Below, piece by piece: positions 119 to 60,503 of a DNA stretch of 64,000 nucleotides. The first letter of the stretch is position 1. The number at the start of each line of letters is the position of its first letter. The notes beneath the pieces are model-generated. The model was not told the DNA's origin. It saw only the letters and a program-made list of their open reading frames with translations, and did no database searches. Source of the stretch: Amoebophrya sp. A120 (lineage: Eukaryota > Protista > Dinoflagellata); NCBI GenBank assembly GCA_905178155.1, contig CAJINV010000010.1, positions 1,440,094-1,504,093 of the forward strand, written 5' to 3'. The position numbers and the translations under genes are program-made.

Positions 119-1466
119 CTTGGAGTGTTTCGCGCATTTCCAGAAACACGGGAAGTTCGGGATTTTGGAACCAATAGAGAAGAACCGAACCTCGGCCTGG
201 GAACCGTTTGTCGACGCGATTCTGCAGCTATCGAGGGAAAGAAATAGAGTTATCGTACTTGTAGTACTGGTGGCTGTCATGCATGACAAAAAATCTTATG
301 CGTGTGCTCGTGCTGTCATATTTTGCATGGAGTCTTTCAACATTACTTGTTGAGAAGGCTCAGAAGATCACTGCGAAGATGAGCCTTTACGTACGTACGA
401 TGCCAGTTTTCCGATGCATATGAGCAGGGCGAAAACGATATCAAATGCAAATATGTCTGAGTTGTCTGGAAGGGTGCAACGTCTGTCATGCACATTTTAC
501 CTGACTCCTGATGTCTGTGATGCATGCCCTAGCATCACAGATTTTATGAGGGCTTCCTGCTGCCTATACCGCATGAGAAATGCCCTCCCGCCGTGGCAAA
601 AACTGAACCTCTTTTGCTGTTCATGCAATACAGATTTTTGTAGTTTCCAGAGTCAGCATCTTCACAAGTTCTAGACCCAGACATATTTGCAATGCATAAA
701 CGACATGAAGCTGGTCACGTCAAAGGACAAGGACGGGGCGGCCTACGTGAGTCCGGAGGGGAAAGAAATGACAGCAAACGAGTACTGGCGGCAGAAAAAA
801 TACGACGAGTGCATGTTTAAATTTGAAGACGACGCGTATAACTTCGCCAAACAACGCTACAAACTGGAACTTCTCCGGTTGAACCGCGGCCACGACAGCA
901 TGGACGGTGGAGCGCTGTGGTTGGGCAGAGCATTGATTTGCAAGGACACGGTATATGCTACTGTAGTAGTTGTTTCGTGTTGATTTCTCAGCGTATTGTG
1001 TTTGTCGTTTGATGTAGTAATAGCGAATATATTGAGTTTTTTCATTCTTTGTAGCTTACACGCATAAAGTTGTTCGTAGGCATCACGCACAAGCGCAACT
1101 TTTGCTCTGAAAAGGAGCTGATTTTACATGTTTTATGATGCAGTTTCTTGATACAAGTGTGATTTCTGAAAATTTACATTTCTGCAAAATGTCGTTTATT
1201 TTCCCATATGCATCAAAACGCAGGTATGGCTCGCGTTGTGGGGCAAATCCATGAATCGGTTCACCGTGGTGTTGGATACGCTGCGACAGCGAAACGTGTT
1301 CTGTGACACGCGGATGGAGTATCGACCCCCGGTGGTGCTGCCGAGGCCCTTCATGCAGCTGACGCTGAACCACACCGAGCGACCCGAGGTCTTGAAAGAA
1401 TTGGTGAATTTTGCGCTGAACGGGTTGCCAATACACGTCGTGGACCTGCGGGACGGTTACAACTGA
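119..1466 (+). CDS. 3' part of an intron-containing gene of unknown function (5' end outside window)
   Basis: Removing the introner 439-698 plus one AACGA gives YEQGENDMKLVTSKDKDG...ICKDT. A GT-AG intron then leads to the last exon VWLALWGKSMNRF...DLRDGYN*. The start coordinate is approximate: a family A end (GCAATGCATA) finishes at 118. Confidence 0.55.
439..698. mobile_element. Introner family B
   Basis: TATCAAATGCAAATATGTCTG...CAGACATATTTGCAATGCATA; DR AACGA. Confidence 0.9.
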
Positions 1467-2934
1467 AGAAAAGTTTGTTAACATTCGCGAATAGAGTAAG
1501 CATTAGCCACATGATGCTGTTCTGTTTCGGTTTGCTTTATGGAAGATTGATGTAGAACAAGCGAGCTCTACTTTGTGGTTTCTGTTACTCCACCTTGTAC
1601 GAACTACCTCATTGAACTTTCGAACTACTACTAGAGAATACAATAGCTGTCCTGTGACGTACACGTATCTCTACTTTATTTTATCAAGCTTCGTCCGACG
1701 TATAATCCACCTCGTTTTTACCTTCTTCTCTCGAACTTGTGATTTCCCCTTTTACCGCTTCGTCCTGTGAGGAATACGTAAATTGCTGCACTCACCACAA
1801 AGCAGACGTATTTTATGTGCCGGATGTGGACGAGAGCGAGAGCCGGAGAGCTGCGACTGCGAGAATCCTGAGTTTACCAACTTTATTCTTCTTACTAAAC
1901 TACCCAGAAAAATTATCGTGCCTGTCGCCCCTCGCTCTCGTGCTCTCTGTGATACAGAACTGATGTCATGTATAAGTACTACCCGATATTACAGTTCAAC
2001 TACTCAAGGACTCTCGACGAATATAGATGAAATGGTAATCTTCATCTTCGACTGATGATGTAGATGGCAGCCGACAGAACTAGAGGCGTAGCTCAGGCGG
2101 CCCTCCAGGAGGGTTCGCGTCGACGTGGTCCCCTCGTCGTTTGTTCATGTTGCTCCACCTGCAGATGTCGTTGCTTTTGCTAAGTACAACTGTAGTTCCT
2201 GTTCGCACTGTGCATAAGATGCCGTTGCTTTACTTGTGTCCACCTTCATCGAGAGACTTCTTCTTCTTCTTCTTTCGTGGGCGGCGCCGGCAAATTTACA
2301 ACAAGAAAATGAAGTACAAGCAGCACTACCGCAGGATGAGAGACACCTACCCGAAGATCAGATTCAAGTGCAAACGGGTCGACGAGCCTGTATGAAGAAA
2401 AAAATATGGGGCTGAAAGACAAAGAAGTTGTAGCTGTGGTAGTGGTCGGTGTCTCTCTTCCGCTGTTGCGTACGAACAAAAAAAAAAGCCGGTGAGAAGT
2501 ATTATCGCGACGGCGACTTGTTTTCATTCAAACACGTATCAAAGATAATCGATCTTTCTGGGTGTCGTGGCAGGAGCTGCAGCACGCAGCTCCATGATCT
2601 TGTTCTATGTCAAAGTAGACGAATAAATTTGTGCGATCAGCAGCAGGTAGTGCTGCCCAAAAGGATAAAGTAGATCCGGATCTTATCAATCATCATGTTC
2701 ATGATCAGAGAAAATAAGAAGTGCAGCATCTCACAACCACGCGACAGAATCTTGATCTTCAGAAGAAAACTCGGTAGAAATGTGACTACAACAAGTTGTC
2801 GTGCGTGAGAGAAAAACAGATCGAAATCCTCCCAACCCATGTGACAGACTACGAGATCAACCTTACGCTTCACGATCATTATATCTACGAACAACTCCAT
2901 TGGCTCCAGCATTTTGTCACCTTCGGTTTCTCAA

Positions 2935-3255: not shown

Positions 3256-3394
3256 ATCAGAGTGGATCTTGTTCACACGACAACAACATAATTTATTTGA
3301 CAAAGTCGCGGGGTAGTGGACCACTCGTCAAAACTACTAAAGGTGTACACAACATCTTCAACCGATTGCCTAATTGCAACAACCAGGTCGAACA

Positions 3395-8342: not shown

Positions 8343-8405
8343 CTATACAAAGCCGCGAAGTCGACTCGGTCGACTCGTCTACATCATTAAAACAAACAGA
8401 ACATC

Positions 8406-8611
8406 TATGGAGAGAAAAAAGTTTGTCACAATCACTAACTTGCAGGTTATGCATTACAAATTTTCTTAGCATCACAAATTTTCCTTGTATTGCAGAAACA
8501 CTAGGGAAATCCCTAATGAAGTTTGGCTGTGATGCATTTTTACGCATGACAAAAAATTTTGTATTGCAAAAATGCGCATGAGTGATCGTGACGAACTTTT
8601 TTTGTTTGATA
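8406..8611. mobile_element. Introner (H-like) upstream of ATG 8665, probably in the 5' UTR
   Basis: TAT...AAAAAAGTTTGTCACAATCACT / AGTGATCGTGACGAACTTTTTT...GATA; DR ACATC. Confidence 0.8.
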
Positions 8612-8664
8612 ACATCATCACTCGTTTCTCTGCCGTATTGGAACAACTACCTCCAGGAAGAAAA

Positions 8665-11600: not shown

Positions 11601-11958
11601 ATAATGATCTGATATAAGTACTACAAGCACAACTACCTGCAAAAATCATAAATCTGAACAGGCAGCGAAGCCTTTCCGTGACCTGGTGGCCGAGCAGACA
11701 CAGCTTTTCCGTGACATCGTGAAGCCCAAGGTGTCGACCGGTTTCTACATTCAGGCCGAGATTACGACAGCGCTTCCTGCTGGCCCAAGAGGGCTTCTCC
11801 CCGGGATGGTCCTTCAGCAGGTGCTGATCGCGCAAAAAAAACACCTGGAGGTAGTACCGGACGAAGCCCTGGCCTCGTGGACGGAACAAACCGCGTCGAA
11901 CACGGAGGCGACAGCAGAGCTCGGCAAATTGGTTTTTCACGAGGTGCCCATCCCCTGA
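8665..11958 (+). CDS. Secreted methyltransferase-like protein, tandem paralogue 2 (multi-exon)
   Basis: MTQPRVFGKMPIRSLLAGCLTGFGFALLGLDEAFA; LDNRQWEQPINRKFQLDNQGKFDLIYIRN; LHSVMDMLKPGGILVL; LFRDIVKPKVSTGFYIQAEIT all align with paralogue 1. Internal exon boundaries are only partly resolved. Confidence 0.6.
9531..9666. mobile_element. Introner family D (degenerate left end)
   Basis: Ends GGTGTTTTTTCCTGGATA; DR AAAAA/GAAAA. Confidence 0.65.
10741..10963. mobile_element. Introner family C
   Basis: TATGACAGTGCACAACTCCCCC...GGGGCTGTGCACTCTCATA; DR CTCGT. Confidence 0.9.
11007..11245. mobile_element. Introner family A
   Basis: TATGCATTGCAAAAG...TTTTGCAATGCATA; DR AGGGG. Confidence 0.9.
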
Positions 11959-14669: not shown

Positions 14670-16133
14670 ATAACTATCTTTTTTGCTCACGACGAGGAAA
14701 GGAGGCACACTAGCAATATCTAGGATGCTTCTTTTGTCATGGACGAAGTATTCCTTATTTGCTGTCAATTCTTGCATTCGAATTGCGTCGACGTCGCCTA
14801 CTTTGCAGTTCCTGGTTTGCACCACGACCGGTGGTTTGTAGTTTCCAGGCAGCCCGTCGTCCTACACACTTATGACGTCAGCAGATTCAGGTGCCTCTTT
14901 ACGCCTTTCCTGCTGGCTGTGGCTACGTCATGCGAAGATGGTTTTTTCAATTTTAGGCTCTTCCGTGGATTATCACTTTTGAGGACTACTTTTTCCTTGA
15001 AGATAAAATAGCAGAGCTGTCGGAGCGAGCTAATCTTGAGCAGGCTCGCCTTCTGCAAATCGATGTCCGTGATCTCCCACCTACGCACCACTTGGGCCTT
15101 CATTATACCAGCGATTGTAGAAATGAAAGATATGGTGCGGTGGATTCGCTAGAAGACTGTGATTGTCATGTGCGAGGGGCTGCGGACTCGCCTTTTGCTG
15201 GTAATTGCTTTGCTATCTCCTTTTGCTTGCAGTCATTGGTAGAGAACCCTCCACATAATTCAGACGAGGACGGAAAACAAAAGTATTTCGCTAGTCTTTG
15301 CTTTCTGCAACCAATGAAATGACCGGAAGACCAGTATCGACTTGGTGCTGTGTATATAAATATCACACGCGAGCAGGACGTACTTGCAAGTCCAGGCTAA
15401 ATGACCTTGTCGCTCTGCGATTTCAGAGACTGTAGCGACTTGTTCGCTGCAATGAAGCTGGCCTGTTCTTGCGATCATGCCGTTTAAGCACTATGTACTC
15501 GCGGTTGCTGCACCAGATGATGATGATTGCTCACCTTCACTGCCTCTTTGTCCAATCGGCGTGCCCCGGAGCGGCTAGTAAAAGCGTGGATTCATTTTCT
15601 CAGGAGCTGCAGGGCTTCTTCGGCCTCTGCATGTGAGCGAGTAGTGACAGGAGGGGTACTTGATTTCGAGTTGGTTCCTGTAGGCCAAGCAATATAATGC
15701 GGCCGACCACTTACAGTGAAGACTGAAGAGTGGACAGTGAAGAGTTTTTGTTGCTATTATTAAGCTTTTTTCCTTCTTTTCCATTGCCATTGCTGTCTCG
15801 CCATTGCCAATGCTGACTTCACGTACACCATCAGAAGTGTAGCATTGGCGTCGGCCGCAAGAAAAAATACTTGCGTTTCGTAGGTGGTTCGCGCATTTTT
15901 TGAAACTTTCTGATTCTGATTCTGAGCGGCGCGTGTACGATGCACGTGGGATAGCAGAGTTGCTCCTGTTACGGCTGGAACTCTTAGCACTGACATTGAC
16001 TGAGCGATGGGTGGAGGAGGTTGTACTACAAACTTACAGCAAGGTCGTGTCTGCTTATTTTGTATCTTCGGCCTGTCACCGATGTAAAATAGGTTCATTG
16101 CTCCACTTACTTACATACCTCTGAAAATAAACC

Positions 16134-19100
16134 ATGGTCGTCGACGACGTTTATCGCGGCGACGGCCAGGGGTCTTCGGTATGCACAGAAAAAAACCCAT
16201 CCACATCCAATTTGTCATGCACAACACGTATCAAGTCATATGTTTGTCATGCAAAAAATGGATGTGGATGGGTTTTTTTCTGTGGATATTCGGTTTCCGG
16301 TCACACCACCATCACCGCCCCCATTGACTACGATCGAATGAGCAGAGTGTCACCCGGACCTGCTTCTTCCATCGTCACGCCACCACCTGTCGTGACCAAC
16401 TCGCACCACAGTGGTCCCACCGCTGGAGGTGCAGGTCCTGCCGCATCTACTCAAGAAGAGCTCCCTAGTACAATCACAGCTGCGGGCGCGCAGGCGTCTC
16501 CTGGGGCGGGAGGTGGAACAAGCAACGCTTCAAGCCTCGTCCAGAACAAAAACGGCAACAAGCTTCCATTGGCTACTGGTACTGGTCCAATAGCCGACAC
16601 CAGTCCCCAGGCCAGCCACGCATCCACACATTCTCTATCCTGTGCAAAAGTATCGTACTCGTAGTAATCCTCGCAGTCATGCATTACAAATCTCCTTCCC
16701 GAGGCAAATCAGCATGACGAATTCCATTGATTTGTAATGCTGAGCCAATTTGTATTGCAATTACTACTAGTACGATACTTCTGCAGTGCATATTCTCTCC
16801 GGGGGTACCACAGTGGCCAGGACACCTTCAATGAGCAAACGCCTCCGACTATCCTGAGGAAAAACGTCCCCACACCAGAGTCAAGATGGAAAATCTGCTA
16901 GACAAATCAGCCAGCTTTGGTTGTTTCGCATGACAAATTTGTCCTCGTAGTGTAGTCGTGTTTAGGTAGTCTAGCAGCATCACAGGTCTAGCATATCATG
17001 CTGATTATAGCATCGGAAATTCCAAAATGCGATTACAAAATGCCTCTCATGGCGCTTCGCATGAGAAACGTTTTTGGCATGCAGATTTGCATGACAACTC
17101 TGGGGTGGGGATGTTTTTACTCAGAATACCGACTCTGGTCGACGGCGCATCGACACCTCCGACGCCCATTATGACAATGCACAACTCCCGCTCCCCCTCA
17201 TTTGTCATGCAAAACGACAAGCCCATCCTTTTTTCCCTGGCACTGCTTGCATGGCAGGTTCCGGAATAGCCGGAACAGCACTACAACGACCGGTCGCGAG
17301 TTTATATTGGAATCTGTCATGCACAAACTGCATTTATGCCAGCACTTGTGTTGCTGCTTATGCCCTTCAAATGAGGGGAAGGGGGAGTTGTTGTGCACTC
17401 TCATACCGATCACGCCGCTCCGCGAGGCACGCTTCGTCCGGCCGCGGCTAAGGAATCGGTCAGAGCCGTTGACTATGCACTGCAAAAGTATAATGATCGT
17501 ACAACTAGTGTGAACCGCATTACAAATGATTTTCCCAACACGATCATATAGAAGAACGAAACTTTTAGTAATGCTCATATACCTGAGTCTGAGACTGGAC
17601 ATTTCAATTTGTCATGCAACGTTGCAATTAGGACGCTTGCTTTTGCAGTGGAAATTGGCGGCGGAGGAAGAGCAGTTCGAGTATGTGAATTCACTCACCG
17701 GTATCCAGGAAAAAACACCCATCCCCATCCATTTTTTGCATGACAAACACTGCAGCTTATGCATGTTTTGCATGACAAATTGGATGGGGATGGGTGTTTT
17801 TTCCTGGATAACCGGCGCGCTGCGAGAATTGGAGCATTTGAGTTTGCAGTACTACGCACTCGTCTGTACCAAGCCGCCACTCCCGTTGTCCGAGCTAACG
17901 GACCACAACAGTGCGGGAGCTGCACACTTGAGCAACAGTATATGCAACTATACAAATTGAAATTTCCCGTACATGTACAAAATGCATCACAAATTTCAGG
18001 GATTCTTCAGAAGAGCTCGCTTGTCATGCTGATGAAGAGGTTTGACGAAAAAGTTTGTCATGCGGAAGCCACATTTGTTGTACATGTGCGGGAAATTTAC
18101 TGTGGATACAGTACTAGCAGACTCAACAAAGCACTCGGTGATCAACAGCCGCCAAGTCCCTCGGCGAGGAACAGCGACACTGCGTTCAATATTGCCACAT
18201 CCAGTTTAAGCACGATCGGGTACTCGACTGGCTTCTCTCAGCCGAACTACTCGGGCTCTTTGGGCAGCCGGTTCGGCAGCAGTGCGATGCTGGATCCCAA
18301 CAACCTCCCGCGGGAGCTGGAGCACGAACGACCGCTGCGCAAGTTTCTACAGAGACCGGATCTATGAGAGTGTACAACTCCGCCTCCCCCTCATTCGTAT
18401 GGCATGAACAGCAACACAAACAACAGCAGAAAACGGGCTCTCGCATGACAAATCTGCGTGCAGATTGTAGTACTATTATTTGCAGTTCCAAAATTTGTCA
18501 TGCTAGCAGTGCGTACGAGCAGGTTTGAATATTGTATTTTGCATTACAAATGAGGGGGAGGGGGAGTTGTGCACTCTCATAGGATCGGGACAAATACGCA
18601 AAACAGATCCGGGGGGTACAGGACGTCAGTGACGATTTGTACCCGGACGTGGATGAGAAGGATGTTTTGCTGATTTTGGGTGATTTAACCGACGACCGTA
18701 TCATATGTAAAAGGGTCCCCACTTCCATACAGTCAAGTTGGGAAATCTACTCGCAAGATAAATCAGCAAGCTTTTGCTGTTGCGCATGACAAGTCTGGGC
18801 TCGCAATGTAGTATTCTGATTCGACCATCACAAATTTCAAAACAGAACTTAGAAAATGCATCGCATGGGGATACGCATGAGAAACGTTTTAAAGCATGCA
18901 GATTTGCGGGGCAACTGTTGGGCGGGGACGCCGTTTTTGCATAGGACAAAACGATTACCGATCCCGGATTTGGTCCGGCTGTTTGACGCGTACCCGTATG
19001 CATTGCAAATGTATCGTACTAGGAGTAATTGCAATACAAATTCGCTCAGCATTACAAATGGAATTTGTCATGCTGATTCGCCTTGGGAAGGAGATTTGTA

Positions 19101-43600: not shown

Positions 43601-44604
43601 TTTCCCGTACATGTACAAGATGCATCGCAAATTTCACCAATTTGGAGTGCAAAACTTGTCATTCTACACTAGGATCGAAGCCAAGATTTGTCATGCAGAG
43701 ACTGCATTTGTACGCGTACGGAAAATTTACTGTGGATAACCAGGACCCGCTGTTAATGAACAAGGCGAGCATTTTGTACGGGATCGGGGTCTTGGTCGTC
43801 ATTATTGTTTATGCATCGCAAATATGTCTGGGTCTGGAAACTTGTGATGCTCGGTGGCGTATCATGAGGAGGCCACAAGTGCTGGCTCAGCTTGACAAGT
43901 TTTTGAGCTCGTAGGTGTTGCCTCTTCTTCGTAACAACCTGCTTTTCTGCATGACAGAAAAATGGGGCTCTTGGGTAACGTGCGTAACAGATTTAAGAGT
44001 CATGCCAGACAAGCATGACAGACGTGCATTCTTCCAGACCCAGACACATTTGCATTTGATGTTGTTTTGTACAAGACCAAACCGAAATCCCGCGCAGGCC
44101 CGGAGAGCGGCATGGGATATGAAACCCTCAGAATGGAAATGCTCAAAGTGGAAATGATTTGTGATGCATGAAATGCGACGCAAAAAAGACTGTATGGCAG
44201 AGGACGCAATGGAGGCCGACTATTGTCCTGCTAGGGGTGAAGAATTGTCGTGCTACTTAGCATGGCAGACGGGCACCCCTTTGCCTTAACTTGCATGACA
44301 GACATGCTTTACGCACCCGGGAAATTTGTCATGCGCCGACTACAAATGCCGCTTCAGCTGGAGTCTTTTTTTGCATTACAAATTATTTTCACTTTGAGGA
44401 TTTCCAACCTGAGGCTTTCATATGGGATCGGGTGCGCTGGCCGCCCAACTGGCAACCATGGAGGCGGAACGGGCGGCAGAGAAGGCCAGGAATGAAGAAC
44501 GAGAGAAGTATGGAAAGAAGTGGTATCTTGAGCTTCATCCAGAGTCAACAAGAGGCTATTTTTGTTCGATGAAATTTGTATGTGTCGCGAGCGAGGAGAA
44601 GTAG
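37634..44604 (+). CDS. Large Cys-rich type I membrane (surface) protein, 15 introners
   Basis: Low-complexity N-terminal exon, then spliced Cys-rich ectodomain (e.g. CYCSNVTCTLEDAQKCCD), TM segment ILYGIGVLVVIIVLY followed by KTKPKSR, and a short tail. Start and stop are uncertain. Confidence 0.6.
39583..39723. mobile_element. Introner family A
   Basis: DR GCGAT/GCAAT. Confidence 0.88.
39769..39879. mobile_element. Introner family D
   Basis: DR AGAAT/AGAAC. Confidence 0.85.
39933..40238. mobile_element. Introner family F
   Basis: DR GTGTG. Confidence 0.9.
40285..40585. mobile_element. Introner family F (opposite orientation to 39933)
   Basis: DR TGGGA. Confidence 0.9.
40645..40928. mobile_element. 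Introner family I
   Basis: TATCGAGAGGAAAAATGCCCCCTCCCCATAT...ATATGGGGAGGGGGATTTTTTCTCGCAATA; DR CCGCC. Confidence 0.9.
41097..41378. mobile_element. Introner family B (diverged)
   Basis: B-type TIR; DR degenerate. Confidence 0.75.
41445..41710. mobile_element. Introner family K
   Basis: TATGAAGTTCTCAA...TTGAGAATGCCATA; DR GAAGA. Confidence 0.82.
41755..41909. mobile_element. Introner family A
   Basis: DR GCCCC. Confidence 0.88.
41981..42125. mobile_element. Introner family G
   Basis: DR GCTAG/GCGAG. Confidence 0.82.
42205..42314. mobile_element. Introner family D
   Basis: DR AGGCC/AGGTT. Confidence 0.82.
42462..42639. mobile_element. Introner family A (diverged)
   Basis: A-type ends; DR degenerate; frame restored. 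Confidence 0.75.
42885..43034. mobile_element. Introner family A
   Basis: DR TACAG. Confidence 0.9.
43588..43738. mobile_element. Introner family G
   Basis: DR ACCAG. Confidence 0.9.
43810..44061. mobile_element. Introner family B
   Basis: DR TTGTT. Confidence 0.88.
44118..44422. mobile_element. Introner family L
   Basis: TATGAAACCCTCAGAATGGAAAT...ATTTCCAACCTGAGGCTTTCATA; DR TGGGA. Confidence 0.88.
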
Positions 44605-45566
44605 TGTCGTGTCTGGACAAGGTTCATTTAATATTCTTGTCGGCGTTCTTGTTAGCATCTCCTGTTGATGACTCTGGTAAAAGTTTCGTTCCCATAGCAA
44701 ACAGCGGGATCGCGAGGCTGCACGAGCGCCGGCGCCAGACAGTGGCGGTGGAATGCTGGGGTGGATGATATAGGATTTTGCTTATCACGGTTTCCTCGGT
44801 GTTTACGTTTGTCTTCATCGCGAGGAGGGCGACGAAGATAGAGCTACAATCCGCTCAAAGCATAACAAACTTACTACTTTCATCTCAAGTATATGATCAA
44901 GGCCAAGTGCCGCCCCGGCTCCGGCACAAGTTTAGTCATCGTAATTCATAATTGGGGGCCGAAGATTGTTTATACTTTATCACTTCGTCGAGTCGTGACA
45001 ACTACACTGATTAGAGGACATAAACGCAGAGAAATGTAAAAGCGTAAGCGCCAGCTGTAAATTGCATTTGGGATAATTGATATGATACACATTTTCACTC
45101 TGAAACCACGGTAGAGATTTCGGTGCGTAGGACAGGTGTAGAGAAAGCAGCGATTCGTGTTTTTTGTTAAAGCGCAAAAACCAACGTGAACAATCCTAGA
45201 GATTTTCACAACATCGCTGCGATTGGAGTCAAGGTATTTTTCAACAAAGTAGAAAAAGATAAAGGGACATGGCCAATGACAATGTCTTTACAGACCTCAA
45301 CATCTTCACCGCAAAATGCGGGAGTTTCCGATTAATGCTCTGGGGCTGGGTGGATCCGTAGGCAACAACATGAGAGTCGCGAGGATGTTTCTCCAAAACT
45401 GCAGGTTGCTCGCACAAGAGTCGTTTAAGCTCCGACAAAAAGAGAATCTAACTTCTGTGAGTCGGATCAGAGCAGGTACTCGTAGCTTCCACGTCCATTC
45501 ATATTTTTAGCCCGATATTATAGAGGCAGTGGCAAAACATCAACATATACTTAAGTACAAAAAACC

Positions 45567-47508: not shown

Positions 47509-49950
47509 ATGGTCCTTTCAAGAAGGTCCTTCGCTAGTACGATACTAGCCACCAGTTCTTTTCTCTCAGCTGACGCGCTGTACCAGAAGGGCTCTCCGGT
47601 CCAGCTACTGGATGCCGCTGCGTTTAAGAAGAAGGTTATCGGTAGCGAGGCACCATTCATGGTGGAATTCTTTGCCAGCTGGTGCGGACACTGCAAGCAG
47701 CTAGCACCGGAGTACGAAAAGGCAGCAAAGGCCACGAAAGGTATCATGTGTTTATTTTGTCATGCGCGACGAGGCTGACGCTACGGCTTCAACTTCGTTC
47801 TATTTCATTGCAATGCTGCGTCGCACCACAAAAATTCTGCCGTTCGTAGTAAATACTTTTACGAGACTCGCATGACAAACTTCTCCTACCGAAGGTGTAA
47901 TCGGCTTCGTCGCGGTCGAAGATCAGGCCGCGATGCAGGAGTATGGTGTCTATCAAATGCAAATATGTCTGACATGACTCAAGAATCTGTGATGCATAGG
48001 CATCAAACGGAATTCTTACCTGTCATGCGAAAACGCAGCTTGCCATGCGGAACACGCAACACATAGGGGCCCAAAAATTTGTCATGCGTGGCTCCGTATT
48101 GCAACGGAACTCCCATTCACTTTTAGCATTACGAGTTTCCAGACCCAGACATATTTGCAAAGCATAGTGTCCAGGGTTTCCCAACCATCAAATGGTTCGG
48201 GGCGAACAAGTCGAAGCCAGAGGACTACAGGTCAGGCCGGGACGCGAAATCCATGGTCGAGTTCGCCATGAAGAAGGTCAACGACATGGTCTCTAGCAAA
48301 ATATCAAGTGCAAAAATGTCTGGGTCTGGAAGATGGTGAGACTTGTCTTGCAAGTCTTGCATGTGCCATGATGTCTGTGATGCATGCTCTAGCCTCAGAG
48401 ATCTTTTGAGGGCTTCTCGATGCCTATTCTGCATGACAAGTGCCCTTTTCCCGTAGCAAAAATTGCGCTCCCTTTGCAGCTCATGCAATCCAAATTTTTT
48501 TGGAGTCCAAACGCAGCATCAGAAGTTGCATTCTTCCAGACCCAGACATTTTTGCATTTGATACAAAATCGGCGGCGGCAACTTCGGCGGAAGTTCATCT
48601 GGTGGATCCGGCGGTGGGTCCGGTGGGTCTGGCGGGTCGGGAGGCGGCGATACGGTCGTGCTCACCGATAGCAACTTCGACGATTTGGTGATGAAGGACA
48701 GCAAAAACGTCTGGTTTGTCAAATTCTACGCGCCCTGGTGCGGACACTGCAAGGTATGGTAGTTGTTTTCGTGCTTGAAGATAAAGGCCTGCGCCTGAAC
48801 GAACTTATCACCATAGATTGATAGAACTAGAAAGCGCTAGACAGCTGCACCACTTTTCTTTAGATGCATGATTAAGTAGGGTTTCGGTGCATGATTTTTT
48901 ATTTTACAACGAAAAAGAGTTCCACTTGTGATGCAATGCAAATGCAAATGGCGCACGAAATATATTCAGAATCGAAATCACATTTGTAACGCCGTACTCA
49001 AATTTTATCAGGCCATGGCGGGAGACTGGGACAAGACGGCTACTGCTATGAAGGGCAAAGTCAAGGTCGCCAAGATGGACGCCACGACAGAGACGGGTGT
49101 GCCAGGAAGGTTTGGCGTGCGAGGATTCCCAACAATCAAGCTGTTTCCAGCTGGTATTTACATTTTTTTGTCGTGCGTTTTTGCATGACTGAATTTGGAG
49201 GTTCGAGTTCGCATGTTGCAACATGATGTGTCGCATGTTGTTCGAAAACAATACACCAACAGGTCCCAAATCCGATAGCAGCGCCGTTGACTACAACGAG
49301 GGGAGAGACGCGGGTTCCCTGCAAAAGTTCGCCGAGAAGTATTTCATGATGACCGTGGAGGCCGAACAGCTGTTGTCCCAGGAAATGTTCGACGAGAAGT
49401 GCAGCGGGGGACAATTGTGCCTGATCGCCTTCCTCCCACACATTATGGAATCCAGTGCTAAGGAGAGGAAAAAGTACGAAAATAATGCCGGAACTTTTTT
49501 GCACTTATGACCCTCTGAAGCTGCAGTTCTGGTTGCTTTAATATTCCCGCATCCTAGCAGTTCGAACTTAATATCGTGATCATCAACTCCTTCACTTTAC
49601 AACTTTTTGACGAAATAACCTTTATCAGGTACCTCGAGCTTTACAACACCGCTGCCCGGTCTGCCGGCGGTGTCCCCGCCAGCTTCTACTGGTCGCAAGG
49701 AGGCGACCAGTACGAATTGGAGGAGAAATTGAACCTCGGCTTCGGGTTTCCCGCACTGGTGGCGATCTCCAGGAAGAAGAACATTTTCGTCACCCACCGC
49801 GGGTCCTTCACCGAGTCCGCGGTTAGGACGTTCATCACTGGGTTGTCAGCGCCGAAGCACTTGAACGATTTGCCCAAGGATTTGCCGAAGTTGGTGAAAC
49901 AGAAGGCCTGGGATGGAAAGGACGCGCCGAAAGAGGATGAGGAACTGTAA
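47509..49950 (+). CDS. PDIA6: Protein disulfide isomerase, PDIA6/P5-like
   Basis: Signal peptide, two WCGHCK thioredoxin domains each followed by GFPTIK, Gly-rich linker, C-terminal DEEL. GT-AG introns 47741-47894, 48754-49011, 49154-49262 and 49474-49628, plus two introners. Confidence 0.92.
47951..48166. mobile_element. Introner family B in PDI
   Basis: DR GTGTC; removal gives [10 protein letters not shown]. Confidence 0.93.
48302..48563. mobile_element. Introner family B in PDI
   Basis: DR CAAAA. Confidence 0.92.
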
Positions 49951-51188: not shown

Positions 51189-54100
51189 ATGTCCTACGTC
51201 TGTGAAAAAGCGTCTCTCACGACCAACAAGGGTGAGCAACTCTTGCAGGATATCGATCTGAAATGCGAGCGCGGGGAGGTCACAGCGATTCTCGGACCGT
51301 CTGGGTCGGGGAAGACGGTTTTGTTGAATTTGCTAACATTCAACACCGGGAAAAAGACTACCAACACCGCAAAATCCGTCACGGTCGATGGGAAGGGAGT
51401 CGCAACATTACAACAGTGGATGGAGCACTGCATTTATGTCCCGAACATCACCGACTTGCAGTTCCCGACCTTAACCTGTAAACAGGTTTTAACCTACGCC
51501 GCCCGGTGGCAGTCGCCTGAATTGATCGAGGAGAGAGTCAACGACGTTCTCCAGCTTCTCGGCTTGGAGTCCTGCCAGGACACGCAGGTTGCGGGCGCTT
51601 TCGGCTTAGCGAAGGGTTTATCTGGCGGGCAGAAGAGGCGATTGGCGCTGGGTGTTGGGCTTCTGCGTCAAGCGGACGTGTTGTTCATCGATGACGTTAC
51701 CTCTGGCCTCGATTCCGCCGCGGCGTTCAACATCATGAAGTGCTTGCAGAAGATCGCCGTGGAGCGGAATGTTAGTGTGATCTGCACGTTGCAGCAGCCG
51801 GCGGAGGATATTTGGGATCTGTGTGATAGGATTTTGCTTCTCTCCGACGGGAAGTCCGCCTTTTTCGGGTACCGGGGGCATTGTTTGGATTACTTCAAGG
51901 AAACTTGCGGGCTGAAAAAACCAAATCAGCAGAACGCGGCGGACTTCGTGTTGAACGCGATTAACGCAGATTTTGTCGCGTTGGATGAAGTCGAGCGGGT
52001 GTTGCGACTGTGGGAGGAGAACAAAGAGAATCAAGCGGTGAAAACCAGGTCCGGATCCAAGGACAAAACTGTTGGGTTGATCACTGGACTACAACAACCT
52101 GGAACTGGTGCCAACGCAACCTCCCCAGACGACGGTGAAAACACGACTGTAGTCTTCAAATCGCAGAAAACGATGCAGCAACAGTTCCAGAACTGCCGGA
52201 AATCGACAAATTTTGAAAAGCTGAAAGTCACCTTCGCACGGGATCTCCGAGTCACGATGACCGACCCGGTACTGTACTGGGCCCGGGCGATCATGAACTT
52301 CGTTATGAGCTTCTTTCTATGCATTGCAAAAGCATCGCACTAAGCGTAAATCGCATGACAAATCTGCTCAGCGTGAGGAGTATAATTTGTAATGGGGATT
52401 GACCTCAACAAAGAGATCTGTAATGCATCTCTGCGATAATTTTTACTACGAGTGCGATACTTTTGCTGTGGATACTTTCTCGTCGCGCTCTGGTGGGAAG
52501 GAATCGAATACGACAACGAGTTTGCGATGAACTATCCTGTGCAAAAGGATCGCACTCGTATTGTTATCATGCATTACAAATCTTTCGCTCTACGTAAATC
52601 CGCATTACAAATTTCATTTCTCATGCTGAAGCTGAGGAAATTTGTCATGCATTTATACGAATCCGATACTTTTGCAATCCACATGAACCGCATGTGGCCC
52701 ATGGCAATGGCGATGAGCAACATAACGCTAGAGTCGATCATCTGTGTGTACTTTTTCAACAAGGCGCACCAAACCTGGAAGGTGGAAATCCGGTCCCAGG
52801 GGTTCTACCCGAGCTACTGCGTCGTGGTTAGTAACTTTCTTTTATCTATCCCCTGCCTCGGTTTCACGGTGTTCATGGCGATGTTTCCGGGCAACATGTA
52901 CGGGCTCGGGAATTACGAGATTGAGGGCGGGTTCGAGGCTTTTACGGTTATGCTCCTGATGGCGATCGTCTTCGACGGGTTTGGGAAACTCTGCTCCTTA
53001 ACTGACAACATGCTGGTCGGCTTTCTGGGGTACATCCAGTTCTGGTTCGCCTCCTTCCTTTTCTGCGGGTTCATGATCGAGTTTGACTTGGTCGTGTGGC
53101 CGTTGCGGGCTCTGACCTACACCAGTCCCCACCGACACGCCATCCCCGCGGTGTTGTATGCGGACTTCGCGAGACACACGGAGTGGAAAAATGCAGCGCC
53201 GTGTGCAGCGGGCATGCTGGAATCCGTCGCGACACAGGCGAACTGCATCTTCCAAGACGGATTTACCGGTGCTGCTGGTGCGAGAACGGCGGTTGGTGCT
53301 GGGTTTGCCTGTGCCTACCAAGAGTACCAGTGCTGGGGCTACACCGGGATCCAGGTGTTGCGCACCATGCACAAGGTCTACCCGGTGGTGGATTACGAAG
53401 ATCCGGTTTTCGAACGGTCGATGATTTTGCTGGGTTTCGTATCCTGCGTAAAAACGTCCCCACCCTATAGTCAAGTCGGAAACTTAGCAACACAAATCCA
53501 GAAGTTTTGGGAGGCACGCATGACAAGTTCGTCTCTATATTGTAGATAGTGCAGTCGCATCACAAACCGGGATCCTTATCCTGTTTACAGCATTACAAAT
53601 GCCAAAACACGGTTGGAAATGCCTCTCATGTAAATGCGCAGTACAAATGTTCCTGTCATTGCAAATCTGCATGACAAATCTGGGGTGGGGACGTTTTTGC
53701 AGATGATACTTCGGGTTGTTGTGGAACTTGTGCTACGGAATGGGGTTGATTTACAAGATGATCGGGGACGTGCCGAAGATCGGTGACTCGGCGCTACAGC
53801 CAACCAGTGGTGCAAACGGAGTGGTCCCGAAGAACAAGAAACGACTCTCATACCACCAGCACGACAACGACTTGCAGAACGACAAAGCTGGTGATGTAAC
53901 AGCAACAGGCACAACTAGTACATCCACGGAGCTGAAGTACAAAGTGCAGGACAACACCGCTGAAGACAACTCCTATGGGAGTGTCAGGTTTGAAATCTAC
54001 AAAGTTGAAATAACTTGTAATGCATAAAATGGATGCCAGTTGTGACCGAGCTTCTAAGTGGCGCATGACAAATTTGGGTAGAGCCGAAATCCAGTTTGTC

Positions 54101-57100
54101 GCGCTGTTTCGGTAAGGAAGACGCCTTTTGTCATGCTACTTTAGCAGCTCAGTTTCTACCCCTTAACAGGCTTACAATATACCTCACTTGCCTACTCTGC
54201 AAGACAGGCACTTTGTGGGCTGCATTTTATGCATGACAAATTATTTCAAAAACTTTGTCGATTTCAATCCTGACACATCCATAACTCCAACCCGGGAAAT
54301 ACTTCCTCTTCCGATTCCAACCCGATCATCCCTTTGTTAAAAATCGACAACATCAACGTCGTCACGAAGGAAATCAAACCGGGCTTCCTCACCAACAAGC
54401 AGGGAAAACCGGCGAAACAACTTGTCATCGACGTCTCGTTAGAAGCGAACCGGGGCGAAGTCTACGCGATCCTTGGTCCGTCCGGCGCCGGGAAAACGAC
54501 TTTCTTAGACGCGATTACCTGCAACGCGGCGAAGAATTTGAACACGTTTGGGACTGTGGCGATAAATGGCGAGAAGGTGGAGAATTTACAGGATTTAATC
54601 GCGCACCGCTGCGTCTACATTCCGCAGCACAACGAGTACTTCGCGACCTTGACGCCGAAAGAAGTGTTGGAGTACTCAGCAGATTTCGCGAATGTGGATA
54701 GAAGCAAAGTCGACAAGGTGATTCGGAAACTTGGCCTCCAATCCTGTCAAAATACCAAAATCGGCGGGAAGTTCGGCACGGTCGGGCTCTCCGAAGGGCA
54801 GAAGAAAAGACTTTCGGTCGCGCAAGCTCTGATCAAGGAGCCGCTGATTCTGTTCTTAGATGAGCCGTATCCAGTGCAACTATGTCTGAGTCTGGAAGGA
54901 TGCAACCTGTGATGCTATCTTTTGATCCTAGATAAAATCTGTGTTGCATGAAAACAGCAAAAGGAACCTGTCCAGTGTTTGCTACGCGGAAAGGGCATTT
55001 GTCATGCGGTATGAGCATCAGAGGGACTTCGCAAAGTCTGTGATCGTGATGATACCGCCTGCATCACAGGTATCAGGCGTCATGGAAAATATGCATGACA
55101 AACTTGGCACTTGTTCTCCAAACCCAGACACATTCGCAATGCATAAGCCAACCACAGGCTTGGACGCTGCCTCCGCCTACTACACCATGCGGTACATCCG
55201 GAAAATCGCCCACGAGGACAACATGTTGATCATTTGCACGATCCACCAACCTATCGAATCCAAATATGTCTGTGTCGGGAAACAAACTTGTGATGCTGGT
55301 TGGCGAATCCTGAGGACGCCCCAAGTGATGGCTCAGCATGACAAGTCTCTGACTTGCTAGGTGTTGCGTATTCTGCATGACAAACCCCGTTTCGGCATGA
55401 CAGAAAAGTGAAGCTTTCGGGTAACGAGCATGACAGACTTTGGAGTCATGCTAGCAGAGCATGACAGACTTTCCATTCTTCCAGACCCAGACATTTTTGC
55501 AATCCATACAACCCAGCTTCGACGTGTGGCAAATGTTTGACAAAGTGCAATTACTGGCGAATGGGTTTACCGCTTATGCTGGGAGAAAGTCGTTTGTGGA
55601 AACGTACTTCAGCAAGTGCTGTGGGTCGAAAGACAATGTCGGTGCGCATGCGTTACCTTTTGGCCGCAACCCCGCAGAAGTGTTGTTGGACAAAATCAAC
55701 GCGGATTTTTCGCCGAAGGAAGTCGTGGACGATATCATTGAATCATGGAAGATTTGGAATACGAAAAAGATGAACACGACGATGCTGCAAAATAACAACT
55801 TAGTTGGAACAACAACCGATGACGTCGTCAAGCCGAGCTCGTTGGAACTGCAGCAAAAACAACACTCCGGTAGCGGCGCCGGGGATTCTAGTACGGGGAA
55901 CAGCGGAACGGGAACAAGTGGGAAGGACGGGATGAACAATCAAGACGAACAAAACTCCTCATCTTCCGGGGCAAACAACGCGAACGCTTTTCCGGAGAAC
56001 CAAGGCCATGTTTTTAACGTGCCTGCAATCGAGGGGTCGCACAACGCGGCTCCTGCTGGTTTCGTCCTCGGAGGAGGCTCATCAGGTACTTCTATCGCAA
56101 AGGTTTACCCCATGGAGATGGAAGTAGCCTTCAACGTGGAGGGTAATCACAACCTAGAAACGGACTCCGACAAAGCAGGAACGACAACTACTTCGACTTC
56201 CATCCAGAAGATGACCACGATCCAAACCTCTTCCTCCTTCGTCGCCGTCACGAAACGGGCCTTCCACGTCGCTTTTACCGATTACTCCGTCTATTTAGGT
56301 CGGATCCCGCTCTACTGGGTTTCGTGCATGTTCTTCTGCTTAGTTTACGTAGAAGTGCGGGAGATGAAGCAGCCGAATGTCCTCTTCCGCATGTGGCTCA
56401 TCATGTGGTGCATCTGCAGTCAGTGTGTCTTCGGCTGCGTTTCCGTGATTTTCTACGGGAATGAGTACCAATTAGTCCGAGATGAGATTCGGAACGGGTT
56501 TTATAAGGCGCGGGACTACCATTTGGCGTTGGTGTTGGTGTCCATCCCGATGGTATGAAAGTGCGCGACTCCACCCCCTCCCCCTCATTTGTCATGCAAA
56601 ATACCCAAGCCACCCTTTGCCTCTTGGCATTGTTTGCATGACAAGTTCTGGTAGCCCAAATAGCAATGTAATCCATTGTAAGTTTGTCATGCAAAGCCGG
56701 CATTTTTGCTGATGAGAGTATGGCTGTTCATGCAATACAAATGAGGGCGGGGGGAGTTGTGCACTGTCATACATCGTGTTTCTACTCGCCTTTGCGACCA
56801 TAAGTGGGAACGCTTATGGTGTGGGGAACTTCGACTGGGAGGATGGGGACTACGGGATGTTCTTGATCAACTGCTTTGTCAACCACTTGGTGTTCGAAGC
56901 GTTCGCCCAGGCGAGCTCGGTGCAATTCGATAACATCATCATCGGTATTGATTGCTGGTTGACTAGCTCATGTTCATAGTCGCATAACGTGCATCACAAA
57001 CGAGTCTCGCCTTTGATATTTCGCAATACAAATTTGATCACACCAGGTATGCTCAACTACGTCGGCTACTGGTTCAACGCGTTTCTCTATCCTGAGAAAA

Positions 57101-60100
57101 AAGTGTTACAGTTACACATTTTGTTGCAGGCCAAGCAAGACAGACAAGCTCTGTCATGCCGGATATGCTAGGAGCCTCCAATCGTGGCTCTTTTTTCGTA
57201 GGATTTCTGCATTGCAAGTTTTCTCTCTCATGCAGAGAAATTTGCGTTGTGAATTGATAACAAATGTGTAACTGTAGCACTTTTTTCGTGTGATATTCTC
57301 TTCATGGGAATGATGCTTGACCTGGATAACACCCTGATCGTGTTCCAGTGGATGTCCTGGGCCATGCCCTTCAAATACAGCTACAATACCGCCGTATGGA
57401 TCTGTCAGGATTGAAATCGTCAAAGTTGAAACGATTTGCCATGCATAAAATGCGAGGCATGAAGTGCCTGTCTTGCCGGGATGGCAAGTGAGTCAGATTG
57501 TGCGCCTATTTAGGGTTTGGGATATAGCTGCTAAAGGAGCATGACAAAAGCAGTCGTCCGTGCCCAAACAGCATGACAGATTGGATTTCGGTGCTCCGAA
57601 AATTTGTCATGCGCCGCTTAGAAATCGGTCTTCCATCAACTGGCATCCATTTTATGCATGACAAATCATTTCAACTTTGTCGATTTCAAACCTGACGCTT
57701 CCATACGCCGTCTACTTGGAGTACGAAGGCCGAACCCTTCCCGGCGCGGACCGCTGCCCAATGATCACTAGTTCTCTCATATCCTGTGCAAAAGTATCGT
57801 ACTCGTAGTGCAATCATGCATTACAAGTCTTTTTCTTAACGTAAATCCGCATTACAAATTTTATTTCTCATGCTGAGGAAATTTGTAATGCATTTATACG
57901 AGGACGATACTTTTGCAGTTCATATCTCACCCCACCGAGCAACACGGTAAACGGTTACCTACTCGCCCAACAGTCCGCCGGGTCGAACCAGGGCGGGTGC
58001 ATTTGGAAGCCGGATGACGTCGTGTCTGTGAACTATCAAATCTAAAAATATCTGGGTCTGGAAGAATACAAACTTGTGATGCGCATTTCAGAACACAGAA
58101 AAATCTCTCATGCATAGGTAGCAAAAGCTGCCCACTTTCTGTCACCAAAATGGGGGATTTGTCATGCGGATTCGACATGGCGGAAGCGGAAGCTTCTCGA
58201 AACCTGTGATGCTGGAGCTTCCATGCCAGACCTTCTGCGTCATGCAAAAACAGCATGACTCTTCCAGACCCAGACACTTTTGCATTTGATACGAACGGCG
58301 TGCCGACAACAACCACGGACTTAGGGTATACCTGTGGTTTACCCGGGAGCTACAAGCACATTTGCTACGGGTTTACCGGGAATGAATATCAAATGCAAAA
58401 ATGTCTGGGTCTAGAACAACAATGCAACTTGTCATGCTAAATCTGAATCATGTAAAATAAAAATCTGTGTTGCATGATTGCCAAAAGCTGTCCACTTTTG
58501 ACCTAATCGAGAGGCAGTTTCCCATGCAGGATTACTATCTATTATATTCATGCGAAAATATTGTTGTAGAGAGGGTAAACGAGAGGTGGCAGGGAGGTCA
58601 AAAAGAGGTCAAAAGAGGTAAAAAAGAGGTCGACAGAGGTGGAGAGGTGGCGCGGGAGGTAGTTCGAGAGGCTGGCCGAGAGGGGGCGCGAGTATAGCCC
58701 GCCGAACCGGTCGCCCTTTAGGGCCGCTAAGGGGCACGGAGGTGGCCGAGAGGTAAAACAGAGGGCAAGCGGGAGGTGGACAGAGGTGCCGAGAGGTTGC
58801 GCGAATAAGGGCGAACCTCCCGCGCACCCTCCTGGCCACCTCTCGGCCACCTCTGTCGACCTCTACCCGCGAATATAGCCGGACTATTAGCGGGGACCCC
58901 CAAAAGAGGCCAAAAAGAGGGTCTGCGAGAGGTCTGCGAGAGGGTAAAAACAGAAAGAAGTGGGCGCGAATCCGCATGGCACTACCCACATTTCGCATTG
59001 CAGGCCATTCGCGAGCTTGTTTTCTTCGGAGTCTTTCCGTGCCACCCTCTCGCGCCGCGCACCCTCTCGCGCGACCCTCTCGCGCAACCCTCTCGCGCCA
59101 ATCTACTTACAGGCGCAGGCGTCACAATTTGTGGCGTCTCGCGCCACCCTCTCGCGCTACCCTCTCGCGCCAGGCGGCTTTTGTTCGCCCCCGGTGCTCT
59201 TTGCAGCTGCTCCCTGCGCAGAGCGCCTACGGGCGCGGGAAGCGCGCAAGCGGTCCTGCGGGTTGGCGCGGCGCAAACAGGCGGCAGGACTCCAGTGTGT
59301 TTCATTGTGCATCCGCCCGTGGCGTTGTGGTCCGATTGGCAAACAGTCTTTCTCCGGCCCAACAGCCTTGCGCTCCGGCGTTAGCCGGAGCATGGCTGGT
59401 AGGTATGATAGAACTCTCACAGAATCTGCCATGCTACGTCCTACATACCAGACGTCCTGGAACATGGAAAACCTGCATGACAACTCTGGCACTCTTCCAG
59501 ACCCAGACACTTTTGCTTTTGATAGCGAAGCGATGGACACGATTCACCGGATGGGATATTCCGCTACGAAGGACGAGGATTTCATGTTGCGGAACTTTAT
59601 CCTAAGTAAAAGCGTCCCCACCCCATAGTCAAGATGGGAAATCTGCTAGACAAATCTACCTGCTTAGGGTGTTGCGCATGACAAGTTCGGCGTCAGGAGG
59701 TAGTTCTGTTTACCTCGTTTAGAAGCATCACAAATCTAGCGCACTATGCTGATTGGAGCATTATAAATTCCCAAACGCGACTAGAGAATACCTATCATGG
59801 GGCTCCGCATGAGAAACATTTTGGGCATGTGTTTCCGCATGACAACTCTGGGGTGGGGACGTTTTTACACGGGATAAACTTTATCGGGTTGTTGGTTTTA
59901 TTGGTTTTGAACAAATTGACGCATGTCATGTTTTATGCATTGCAAAAGTATAGTACTCCCTCGTACCAATTGCAACTATGCATAACAAATCTTGTCCTTA
60001 AGGTAAAACAGCATGACAGAGTCCAGTTCTCAACATGCTGAGAAAAGTTGTAATGCGTTTCTACTAGTGCGATACTTTTGCAATGCATATGTTTTTCAAC

Positions 60101-60503
60101 CAGAAAGTCCACTATTCCAGCAAATTAGCAGCTGCTGGAGGGGATTTGGAGAAGGAAACTGGTTTGAAGGAGGCATATGAAATGCAAAAGTGTCTGGGTC
60201 TGGAAGAATGCGACTTGTGATGCTGCGTTTGGATTCCAAAAAAAATTGTATTGCATGAGTAGCAAAGGGAATGTAATTTTTTTTTACGCGGATAGGGAAT
60301 TTGTCATGCGAAATAGGCATCAAGAACCCCTCGCAAAGTCTGTGATGCTACGGCATGCATCATAGACATCATGGCTCATGCAAAACGTGCATGACAAGTC
60401 TCAGAATCTCCCAAACCCAGACATTTTTGCATTTGATAAAGCATCGGGAAAATCAAGTCCGGCTGTGGAAGTGTCTGCGGCCATCGGTGACAAGATGATG
60501 TAG
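51189..60503 (+). CDS. Full-size ABCG/PDR-type transporter (NBD-TMD-NBD-TMD), 15 introners plus 1 GT-AG intron
   Basis: GPSGSGKT/LSGGQ and GPSGAGKT/LSEGQ/LFLDEPTTGLD/TIHQPS motifs. One continuous frame to TAG 60501-60503 after removing every element plus one 5-bp repeat and intron 56945-57046. Confidence 0.92.
52318..52474. mobile_element. Introner family A in ABCG
   Basis: DR CTTTC. Confidence 0.9.
52533..52683. mobile_element. Introner family A in ABCG
   Basis: DR TGAAC. Confidence 0.9.
53440..53708. mobile_element. Introner family E in ABCG
   Basis: DR TTTCG/CTTCG. Confidence 0.9.
53974..54283. mobile_element. Introner family F in ABCG
   Basis: DR ACTCC. Confidence 0.9.
54868..55145. 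mobile_element. Introner family B in ABCG Walker B/D-loop
   Basis: DR AGCCG/AGCCA; removal gives LDEPTTGLD. Confidence 0.93.
55252..55508. mobile_element. Introner family B in ABCG H-loop
   Basis: DR CAACC; removal gives TIHQPS. Confidence 0.93.
56554..56771. mobile_element. Introner family C in ABCG
   Basis: DR GATGG/CATCG. Confidence 0.85.
57088..57295. mobile_element. Introner family H in ABCG
   Basis: DR TTCTC. Confidence 0.9.
57395..57705. mobile_element. Introner family F in ABCG
   Basis: DR CGCCG. Confidence 0.9.
57780..57924. mobile_element. Introner family A in ABCG
   Basis: DR TCTCA. Confidence 0.9.
58034..58291. mobile_element. Introner family B in ABCG
   Basis: DR TGAAC/CGAAC. 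Confidence 0.9.
58387..59524. mobile_element. Introner family B in ABCG, expanded by a nested Helitron-like insertion
   Basis: B-type TIRs 1138 bp apart; DR ATGAA/GCGAA; removal gives GFTGNEAMDTIH. Confidence 0.88.
58532..59399 (+). mobile_element. Non-autonomous Helitron-like element nested in a family B introner
   Basis: Inserted between A and T with no TSD (CATGCAGGA|TAGG); AT-rich 5' end TTACTATCTATTATA; 3' hairpin GCTCCGGC-GTTA-GCCGGAGC (59372-59391) followed by terminal CTGG (CTRR). Confidence 0.75.
59598..59876. mobile_element. Introner family E in ABCG
   Basis: DR AACTT. Confidence 0.9.
59934..60089. mobile_element. Introner family A in ABCG
   Basis: DR TGTTT. Confidence 0.9.
60176..60438. 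mobile_element. Introner family B in ABCG
   Basis: DR AGGCA/AAGCA. Confidence 0.9.

Follow-up and report, generated by a model that had tools for sequence, protein, structure and literature searches.

A fixed cut register, one base before TAT and four after ATA, for transposon-derived introns of Amoebophrya sp. A120

How are dozens of insertions that lack GT-AG ends taken out of the transcripts of protein-coding genes, and where exactly are they cut? The question is raised by 64,000 nucleotides of DNA from the dinoflagellate Amoebophrya sp. A120 (contig CAJINV010000010.1 of assembly GCA_905178155.1, positions 1,440,094 to 1,504,093; “the window” is this whole stretch). A reading of its letters, here called the original prediction, had described about 78 elements that begin with TAT, end with ATA, carry terminal inverted repeats and lie between 5-bp direct repeats, and had interpreted them as transposon-derived introns lost together with one repeat. 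We confirm this observation, and our results support part of the interpretation. The intron is N-TAT...ATA-NNNN: the transcript is cut one base before TAT and four bases after ATA, that is, after the fourth base of the repeat. Two exons agree at 100% identity with proteins that carry the name Amoebophrya sp. A120 and, by this sequence match, the elements are the introner system of that organism (Farhat et al. 2021, PMC7789003), in line with the earlier attribution of the class to Amoebophrya.

Removal was followed in assembled contigs of runs X3 and X6, whose RNA origin is a guess. In X3, the contigs look like spliced RNA: the span of the protein disulfide isomerase (PDI) transcript is 2016, exactly as predicted after removal of two elements and four GT-AG introns. 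In X6, a piece starts at base 49629, directly after a canonical acceptor, and one contig of 4082 nt skips all 13 elements that it spans, each by its length plus 5, as expected if the element leaves with one repeat. Further copies are confirmed by length sums (gaps of 52, 258, and 200 nt), and copies of families 1, 2, and 4 (Table 1) are removed in both orientations. Thus, the element and one repeat are absent from transcripts.

Where the two repeats of an element differ, the transcript tells which copy stays. A cut after the fourth repeat base (register 4) was first proposed from four junctions (53440, 54868, 56554, and 58387), read from piece ends and one loose end on the assumption of a leftmost-cut convention. 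Stated before testing, it held at all seven informative junctions of the X6 contig, three of which are unambiguous (Table 1; about 3e-4 under a random cut); a fourth X6 junction reads TT..TC. Annotated proteins point to the same position. All 22 elements within the annotated kinase P0121 fit register 4, their intersection being registers 3-4, and our ABCG transporter model equals protein P0001 only in registers 4-5 (compared with the element that P0001 retains left in place). Two decayed copies, found afterwards, also follow the rule. Sites with a repeat identity of 0/5 and 2/5 are still cut exactly; therefore the repeat is an insertion footprint rather than a splice signal, and it is dispensable for removal.

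Reverse transcriptase can jump across a hairpin between direct repeats, and a hairpin with short flanking repeats is its usual substrate, so that skips seen in contigs could be artifacts of this kind. However, the skips are exact at repeat identities of 0/5, 2/5, and 3/5, and the frames of 1183 and 1579 aa restored by removal can be aligned to a 67% identical relative with no gap at most junctions, which makes this the least credible of the explanations considered here. Protein relatives without the insertions exist; no orthologous DNA for the window was found among 152 related loci (L001-L152), all from one other assembly. The original prediction had also named motifs that removal should restore. 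The PDI motif, LDEPTTGLD, and TIHQPS are indeed broken in the raw DNA and restored, but HPNIL of the kinase is intact in the raw DNA, with the element five codons further on.

The elements might instead be excised from DNA at some life stage, like the internal eliminated sequences (IES) of ciliates, an alternative that the original prediction had kept in view. Their TA-containing ends would suit this, and only one likely DNA run was compared. That run, X1, behaves as DNA that retains the elements, with unique DNA even at a depth of about 44 and contigs that extend across complete elements and canonical introns. At 40839-41830 and 48540-52562, complete elements are contained in single contigs of single-copy depth (41-44), so that in this one sample the absence from somatic DNA that marks ciliate IES is not seen. 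Contigs without elements also lack canonical introns, and the cut falls inside the repeat, not at the element end. We therefore consider excision from DNA very improbable.

The grammar of the elements is unmistakable in the window. A strict search (a 5-bp direct repeat around TAT..ATA, up to 600 bp, inverted-repeat score of at least 8) finds 36 elements, against a mean of 0.0 (maximum 0) in 30 dinucleotide shuffles, and an unbiased scan for direct plus inverted repeats with k = 2-7 singles out k = 5, with TAT..ATA making up 24 of its 34 hits. A relaxed search with a library of ends, which relied on end similarity and in which the registers of nine copies were set by hand, yields 80 elements between 439 and 60438, amounting to 18,063 bp or 28% of the window; the two decayed elements emerged from gaps in annotation and transcript length. 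A 5-bp repeat at every element, as originally described, holds for the repeat length but not for its integrity: 45 of the 80 repeats are perfect, 21 match at 4/5, 10 at 3/5, and 4 at 2/5 or less. Seven multi-copy families and 14 singletons (Table 1) are compatible with the dozen families counted earlier, and relatives of four of the singletons occur in the related loci. The families had been described as differing in their inverted repeats, but these are not unrelated; TAT(G/C)N6-AAA is common to all of them (74 strict ends; 160 ends counted).

Once removed, all 80 elements sit in + strand frames of at least 111 aa, and element-free frames of 671, 1183, and 1376 aa span 14, 16, and 7 elements, respectively. 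Orientation relative to the host gene is unbiased in the two large families, both in the window (Table 1) and in the related loci (42:35 and 27:34), where, of 498 elements, the 236 with a clear host strand and a repeat identity of 3/5 or better entered the strand statistics. Family 7 is skewed in those loci (18:4, p = 0.004 before correction for 11 families), a bias that may be real or an artifact of its near-palindromic body. The elements have the traits of miniature inverted-repeat transposable elements (MITEs) or non-autonomous transposons with terminal inverted repeats, being short, dispersed in many copies, and flanked by a target duplication of fixed length. Bins holding elements reach a depth of 170,000 in run X1, against about 44 for unique DNA. 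As in MITEs, coding capacity appears to be absent: the 13 frames of the three longest elements have no Pfam match at the cut-off.

Much of this system is in print. For A120 introners, Farhat et al. (PMC7789003) describe repeats that start with TAT, seven looser bases, and AAA, direct repeats of 3-5 nt (5 bp in the legend of Fig. S19), and RNA-supported removal of MITE-like elements in many families, with 29,850 family members in Table S7 and no transposase found in A120. All of these marks recur here: the A120 genome, TAT with seven loose bases and AAA, the border repeat, and non-canonical removal from transcripts. In the accessible parts of that paper, the introners have no clear splice signature, and the cut position relative to the hairpin is called variable and the border unknown. 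In contrast, we find the cut fixed at 1 + 4, a repeat that is always 5 bp in origin and dispensable, and removal in both orientations. Figures of that paper (the logos of Fig. 3, and Figs. S19-S25) may show part of the register pattern, though the legends call the position variable. In the available portion of a later survey (Gozashti et al. 2025, PMC12130899), which tabulates target-site duplications (TSDs), A120 families of about 106, 149, 209, 255, 278, and 305 bp match window families in length (among 40 of 58 A120 rows). TSDs there range from 2 to 6 bp, the sources of splice sites conflict by family, and A120 introners are spread over several transposon classes. The class, the TAT ends, the 5-bp duplication, and removal from RNA are thus published, and what is new here is the cut register as a single splice rule. 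Literature searches directed at Amoebophrya, introners, or Ginger, with most subscription papers outside their reach, returned neither a fixed register, nor orientation independence, nor a dispensable repeat.

What, then, recognizes the ends? In register 4, the 5' dinucleotide is NT in 80/80 elements (CT 23, AT 22, GT 21, TT 14), all 16 dinucleotides occur at the 3' end, and GT-AG occurs once in the 80. The GT (or GC) of U2-type introns is thus found at the 5' end as GT in only 21/80, and their 3' AG in only 4/80 (21/236 in the related loci, where GT-AG is found in 6 of 236 against 6.1 expected). Sliding the junction does not help: none of the 45 copies with perfect repeats gives GT-AG or GC-AG in any register, as the original prediction had held for many copies. 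Insertion at proto-splice sites (NNAG|G) was rejected, as the target bases show almost no preference and GT-AG is about as frequent as chance predicts. A different part of the donor is constant. Positions +2 to +4 read as in the host, NTAY in 80/80 elements and GTAY (GTAT or GTAC) in 7/7 canonical donors, and in the three window elements whose 5' end departs from TAT, the word is TAC. All nine top non-canonical A120 motifs in Table S4 of Farhat et al. start with NT, and all nine motifs of A25, where the repeat begins with TTA, start with TT (PMC7789003). One removal machinery that does not depend on GT-AG had been proposed. The lack of GT-AG dependence stands, but to call the machinery unrelated to GT-AG splicing would go too far for a donor that keeps T at +2 and A at +3 and mirrors the host GTAY.

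The two ends of the elements do not decay alike. Positions 1-2 of TAT depart from the consensus 3 times at the 5' end vs. 17 times at the 3' end, and position 3 departs 11 vs. 2 times (interaction p = 1.6e-4 pooled; p = 0.012 in the related loci alone), so that the 5' end retains T and A and the 3' end retains the A at -7. General mutation bias fails to explain this, because no matching T-to-C strand bias is present elsewhere in the repeats (48 vs. 66). Since the departures are strand-asymmetric and the donor word is the host's own, they favor, in our reading, a spliceosome that ignores the G at +1 and the final AG over an enzyme that purely cuts hairpins. We conclude that the elements are short, non-coding inverted-repeat units that lie in exons in either orientation and are probably non-autonomous transposons of the cut-and-paste type; they are removed at 1 + 4, likely by a divergent major spliceosome that needs neither the first G nor the last AG.

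In this mechanism, the elements would be inserted by an enzyme of the integrase type that makes a 5-bp stagger and is hardly selective for its target, and because 1 + 4 = 5, each new insertion would be removed without a scar. The TAT of the element would supply U at +2, A at +3, and U or C at +4, the word of the host GTAY donors. The acceptor would be fixed by how far it lies from the ATA word; the first A of that word, at -7, would be a candidate branch point, and the terminal stem could bring the two intron ends together. The available text of Farhat et al. lists U1-70K, U1C, U2AF65/35, and SF1 for A120, and no snRNP27 (Table S6, PMC7789003); in fungi, loss of SNRNP27K goes with +4 U donors (PMC10581693). 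Such a spliceosome can evolve, since a U2-type spliceosome removes transposon-derived non-GT-AG introns in Fritillaria (PMC13326754). The introns of Fritillaria borealis prefer AG-AC/AG-AT ends and a TAC target, whereas here no target preference is seen and the terminal dinucleotides are free except for the T at +2.

The strongest rival is a spliceosome-independent endonuclease and ligase that recognize the terminal RNA stem and cut one base before and four after it, as proposed for the nonconventional introns of euglenids. No base is required at +1, -1, or -2, removal works in both orientations, and pairing of the repeat arms is predicted with a probability above 0.5 at positions 9-14 in 68-75% of 79 copies, all of which such enzymes would account for. 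In the sources available to us, euglenid introns likewise have non-canonical ends, a terminal stem at fixed offsets, junction repeats, and a proposed MITE origin, and they leave as full-length circles. Their stem, however, pairs +4..+6 with -8..-6 (usually CAG/CTG) at Y/R junctions, whereas the corresponding A120 positions are +2..+4 and -7..-5 (TAT/ATA), with no junction preference. Moreover, the terminal TAT and ATA pair in only about half of the predicted folds, and in the two decayed copies TAT, ATA, and the register persist even though the folds predicted for them leave these words unpaired. Two of the three asymmetries oppose pairing, with TAC..ATA and TAT..ACA mismatches outnumbering the mirror forms that would keep a G-U wobble, and the donor word equals that of the host spliceosome. 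A nuclease and ligase are thus, in our judgment, unlikely, though by no means negligible. Canonical introns gave no support for being hairpins themselves (folding z-scores of -1.6 to +1.1 in nine introns, four checked by transcript length, two later by annotation, and three by eye).

A second, dedicated small nuclear ribonucleoprotein (snRNP) or protein-guided machinery could also work beside an ordinary GT-AG spliceosome. Fritillaria, as far as its report is available, uses duplicated and divergent U2AF subunits for non-canonical 3' ends, and A120 has two SF1 entries (Table S6, PMC7789003). Against this, GTAY and NTAY share one donor word, 15% of A120 canonical introns are reported to have the same repeat anatomy (PMC7789003), and no duplicate machinery was seen, though none was looked for. 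We regard a second machinery as improbable.

Several points weigh against a divergent spliceosome. The asymmetry is drawn from 33 departures, no single position reaches significance by itself in the related loci, and repeat position 23 is also asymmetric (3 vs. 14). Pairing of the first and last intron bases is a conserved feature of spliceosomal catalysis, yet the +1 and -1 bases show no covariation (p = 0.44), and intronic repeat copies show no drift toward G or AG. Only three of seven canonical acceptors have A at -7, and the bases on either side of the -7 A match none of the common branch consensus sequences. All pinned junctions lie in a single gene and were read from assembled contigs of a single run, and the annotated proteins may not be independent of such transcript data. 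U1 snRNA is reported as undetected in A120 in the available text of Farhat et al. (PMC7789003), and the spliceosome step is our inference.

A bolder version of the divergent-spliceosome reading, to which we give somewhat less than an even chance, is that the A120 major spliceosome has dropped both universally conserved terminal bases. It would read an N|NUAY donor, cut four bases after AUA, and branch at the -7 A, so that any TAT...ATA transposon that duplicates 5 bp would become a scarless intron wherever in an exon it landed and whichever way it pointed; A25 would follow this +2 U and +3 A rule as well, with TTA ends. If the removal is spliceosomal, both the first G and the last AG are expendable, although they are generally seen as kept in place by the catalytic core. 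The fixed register itself puts one rule in place of tens of apparent splice motifs, explains why insertion needs no choice of target or orientation, and yields, for about 30,000 introns, a prediction of the exact ends and of a candidate branch base. It turns the choice between spliceosome and hairpin nuclease into a directly testable question. It also corrects gene models, such as that of the public ABCG protein, in which one element has been left in frame.

Consistent with the original prediction, no transposase was found in the window, and Pfam finds no transposase or integrase in the 114 longest of 170 frames of at least 220 aa from the 152 loci (the 56 left out being the shortest), nor in the frames of the 650-, 815-, and 1138-bp elements; pattern scans of viral contigs found nothing. 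The 815-bp element (L035, 6184-6998) lies in one of the related loci, shares its TAT..ATA ends with the window element at 41445-41710, and is close in length to family 38 of Gozashti et al. (808-810 bp), which is listed as “Ginger, 5-bp TSD, TA/TA termini” with partial homology to a Gypsy-integrase-like transposase (PMC12130899). Based on the shared ends and this entry, we infer that an integrase-type enzyme with a 5-bp stagger mobilizes the elements. Ginger transposons, in the part of their description available (PMC2836005), duplicate 4-5 bp of target, in line with the 5 bp here, and Ginger2/TDD elements have terminal inverted repeats, with TDD-4 and TDD-5 also making 5-bp duplications. Their ends, however, are TGTNR rather than TAT(G/C), and their Gypsy-integrase-like transposase has no counterpart among the frames tested by Pfam here. 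A 4.2-kb TAT..ATA candidate in locus L060 proved to be two separate elements around a host exon.

Table 1. Elements, pinned introns, and host genes of the window
Feature	Position	Strand	Details
Pinned intron	39070..39315	+	element 39071-39311 plus 1 base before and 4 after; repeat 0/5; ends GT..AG; joint 39069-39316, ambiguity 0
Pinned intron	41096..41382	+	element 41097-41378 plus 1 and 4; repeat 2/5; ends AT..TT; joint 41095-41383, ambiguity 0
Pinned intron	42204..42318	+	element 42205-42314 plus 1 and 4; repeat 3/5; ends CT..GT; joint 42203-42319, ambiguity 0
Family 1	16636-16792, 17941-18108, 18997-19146, 19248-19399, 19528-19677, 21289-21424, 21819-21974, 23719-23869, 26142-26306, 28568-28723, 30150-30309, 30381-30542, 34959-35112, 35440-35598, 39583-39723, 41755-41909, 41981-42125, 42462-42639, 42885-43034, 43588-43738, 46109-46260, 46367-46518, 52318-52474, 52533-52683, 57780-57924, 59934-60089		26 copies, 136-178 bp, orientation 12:14
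Family 2	439-698, 19717-19967, 22566-22807, 23942-24197, 24881-25145, 25219-25488, 29390-29641, 30608-30859, 43810-44061, 45813-46071, 47951-48166, 48302-48563, 54868-55145, 55252-55508, 58034-58291, 58387-59524 (with nested insert), 60176-60438		17 copies, mostly 216-278 bp, orientation 10:7
Family 3	10741-10963, 17170-17405, 18363-18581, 22282-22509, 25827-26063, 27516-27726, 56554-56771		7 copies, 211-237 bp, orientation 5:2
Family 4	20063-20369, 39933-40238, 40285-40585, 44118-44422, 53974-54283, 57395-57705		6 copies, 301-311 bp, orientation 3:3
Family 5	16180-16288, 17702-17810, 39769-39879, 42205-42314		4 copies
Family 6	16850-17128, 18699-18948, 53440-53708, 59598-59876		4 copies
Family 7	21509-21728, 57088-57295		2 copies
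Singletons (in this window)	8406-8611, 9531-9666, 9785-10046, 10105-10281, 11007-11245, 17474-17654, 23259-23440, 25530-25725, 27815-28464 (650 bp), 29700-29864, 39071-39311, 40645-40928, 41097-41378, 41445-41710		14
Decayed element	44509..44696	+	TAT..ATA kept, repeat 2/5; missed by end search; length + 5 closes the transcript-length sum (200 predicted, 200 observed)
Decayed element	24361..24661	+	TAT..ATA kept, repeat 2/5; missed by end search; annotated kinase P0121 reproduced only by registers 4-5
Nested repeat	58533..59399		about 870 bp, inside element 58387-59524; whole 1143-nt unit absent from transcript (loose end behind 58386)
Protein kinase (annotated part P0121)	16131..26414	+	27 catalogued elements, decayed one at 24361; canonical introns 20915-21151 (GTACT) and 23028-23188 (GTATA)
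Cysteine-rich host gene, no Pfam match in exon tested	37595..44601	+	16 catalogued elements, decayed one at 44509; transcript contig skips all 13 elements in its range
Protein disulfide isomerase	47509..49950	+	2 elements, 4 canonical GT-AG introns; Thioredoxin PF00085
PDI canonical introns	47741-47894, 48754-49011, 49154-49262, 49474-49628	+	donors GTATC, GTATG, GTATT, GTACG
Full-size ABCG-type transporter	51189..60500	+	1579 aa after removal of 15 elements and one canonical intron (56945-57046, donor GTATT)

Inside the elements, the word TCATGC / GCATGA occurs at 20-40 times its exon rate and crosses family lines. In a looser form, both versions are present in 55/80 copies, often 33-46 bases from an end; the word is possibly a site for a transposase or a splicing factor. 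The nested repeat of about 870 bp has copies 72-77% identical in L008/L009, L061, and L020, the one in L008 lying inside a family 4 element, so that introners may serve as safe landing sites. One of its ends resembles what we take to be Helitron-type termini. A further insert at ~26560-27240, with long inverted and short tandem repeats and not of the TAT type, lies between exons of the kinase region.

Among the host genes, the public ABCG protein P0001 keeps element 52533-52683 and its repeat in frame as 52 extra residues, likely an annotation error; an X3 contig removes the element. The first 45 residues of P0121, which begins inside 16131-17660, differ from the element-free frame, and that frame continues open across five more elements upstream. 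The first PDI intron (47741-47894) has a 4/5 flanking repeat, a GTATC start, and the paired GTCATGC/GCATGAC motif that is common inside elements, and is possibly an old introner turned GT-AG. All element-bearing genes lie on the + strand, in agreement with the one-directional gene clusters reported for Amoebophrya. Two regions, 3374-5470 and 8391-11955, form a paralog pair that is about 50-65% identical in blocks, one without a catalogued element and the other with six.

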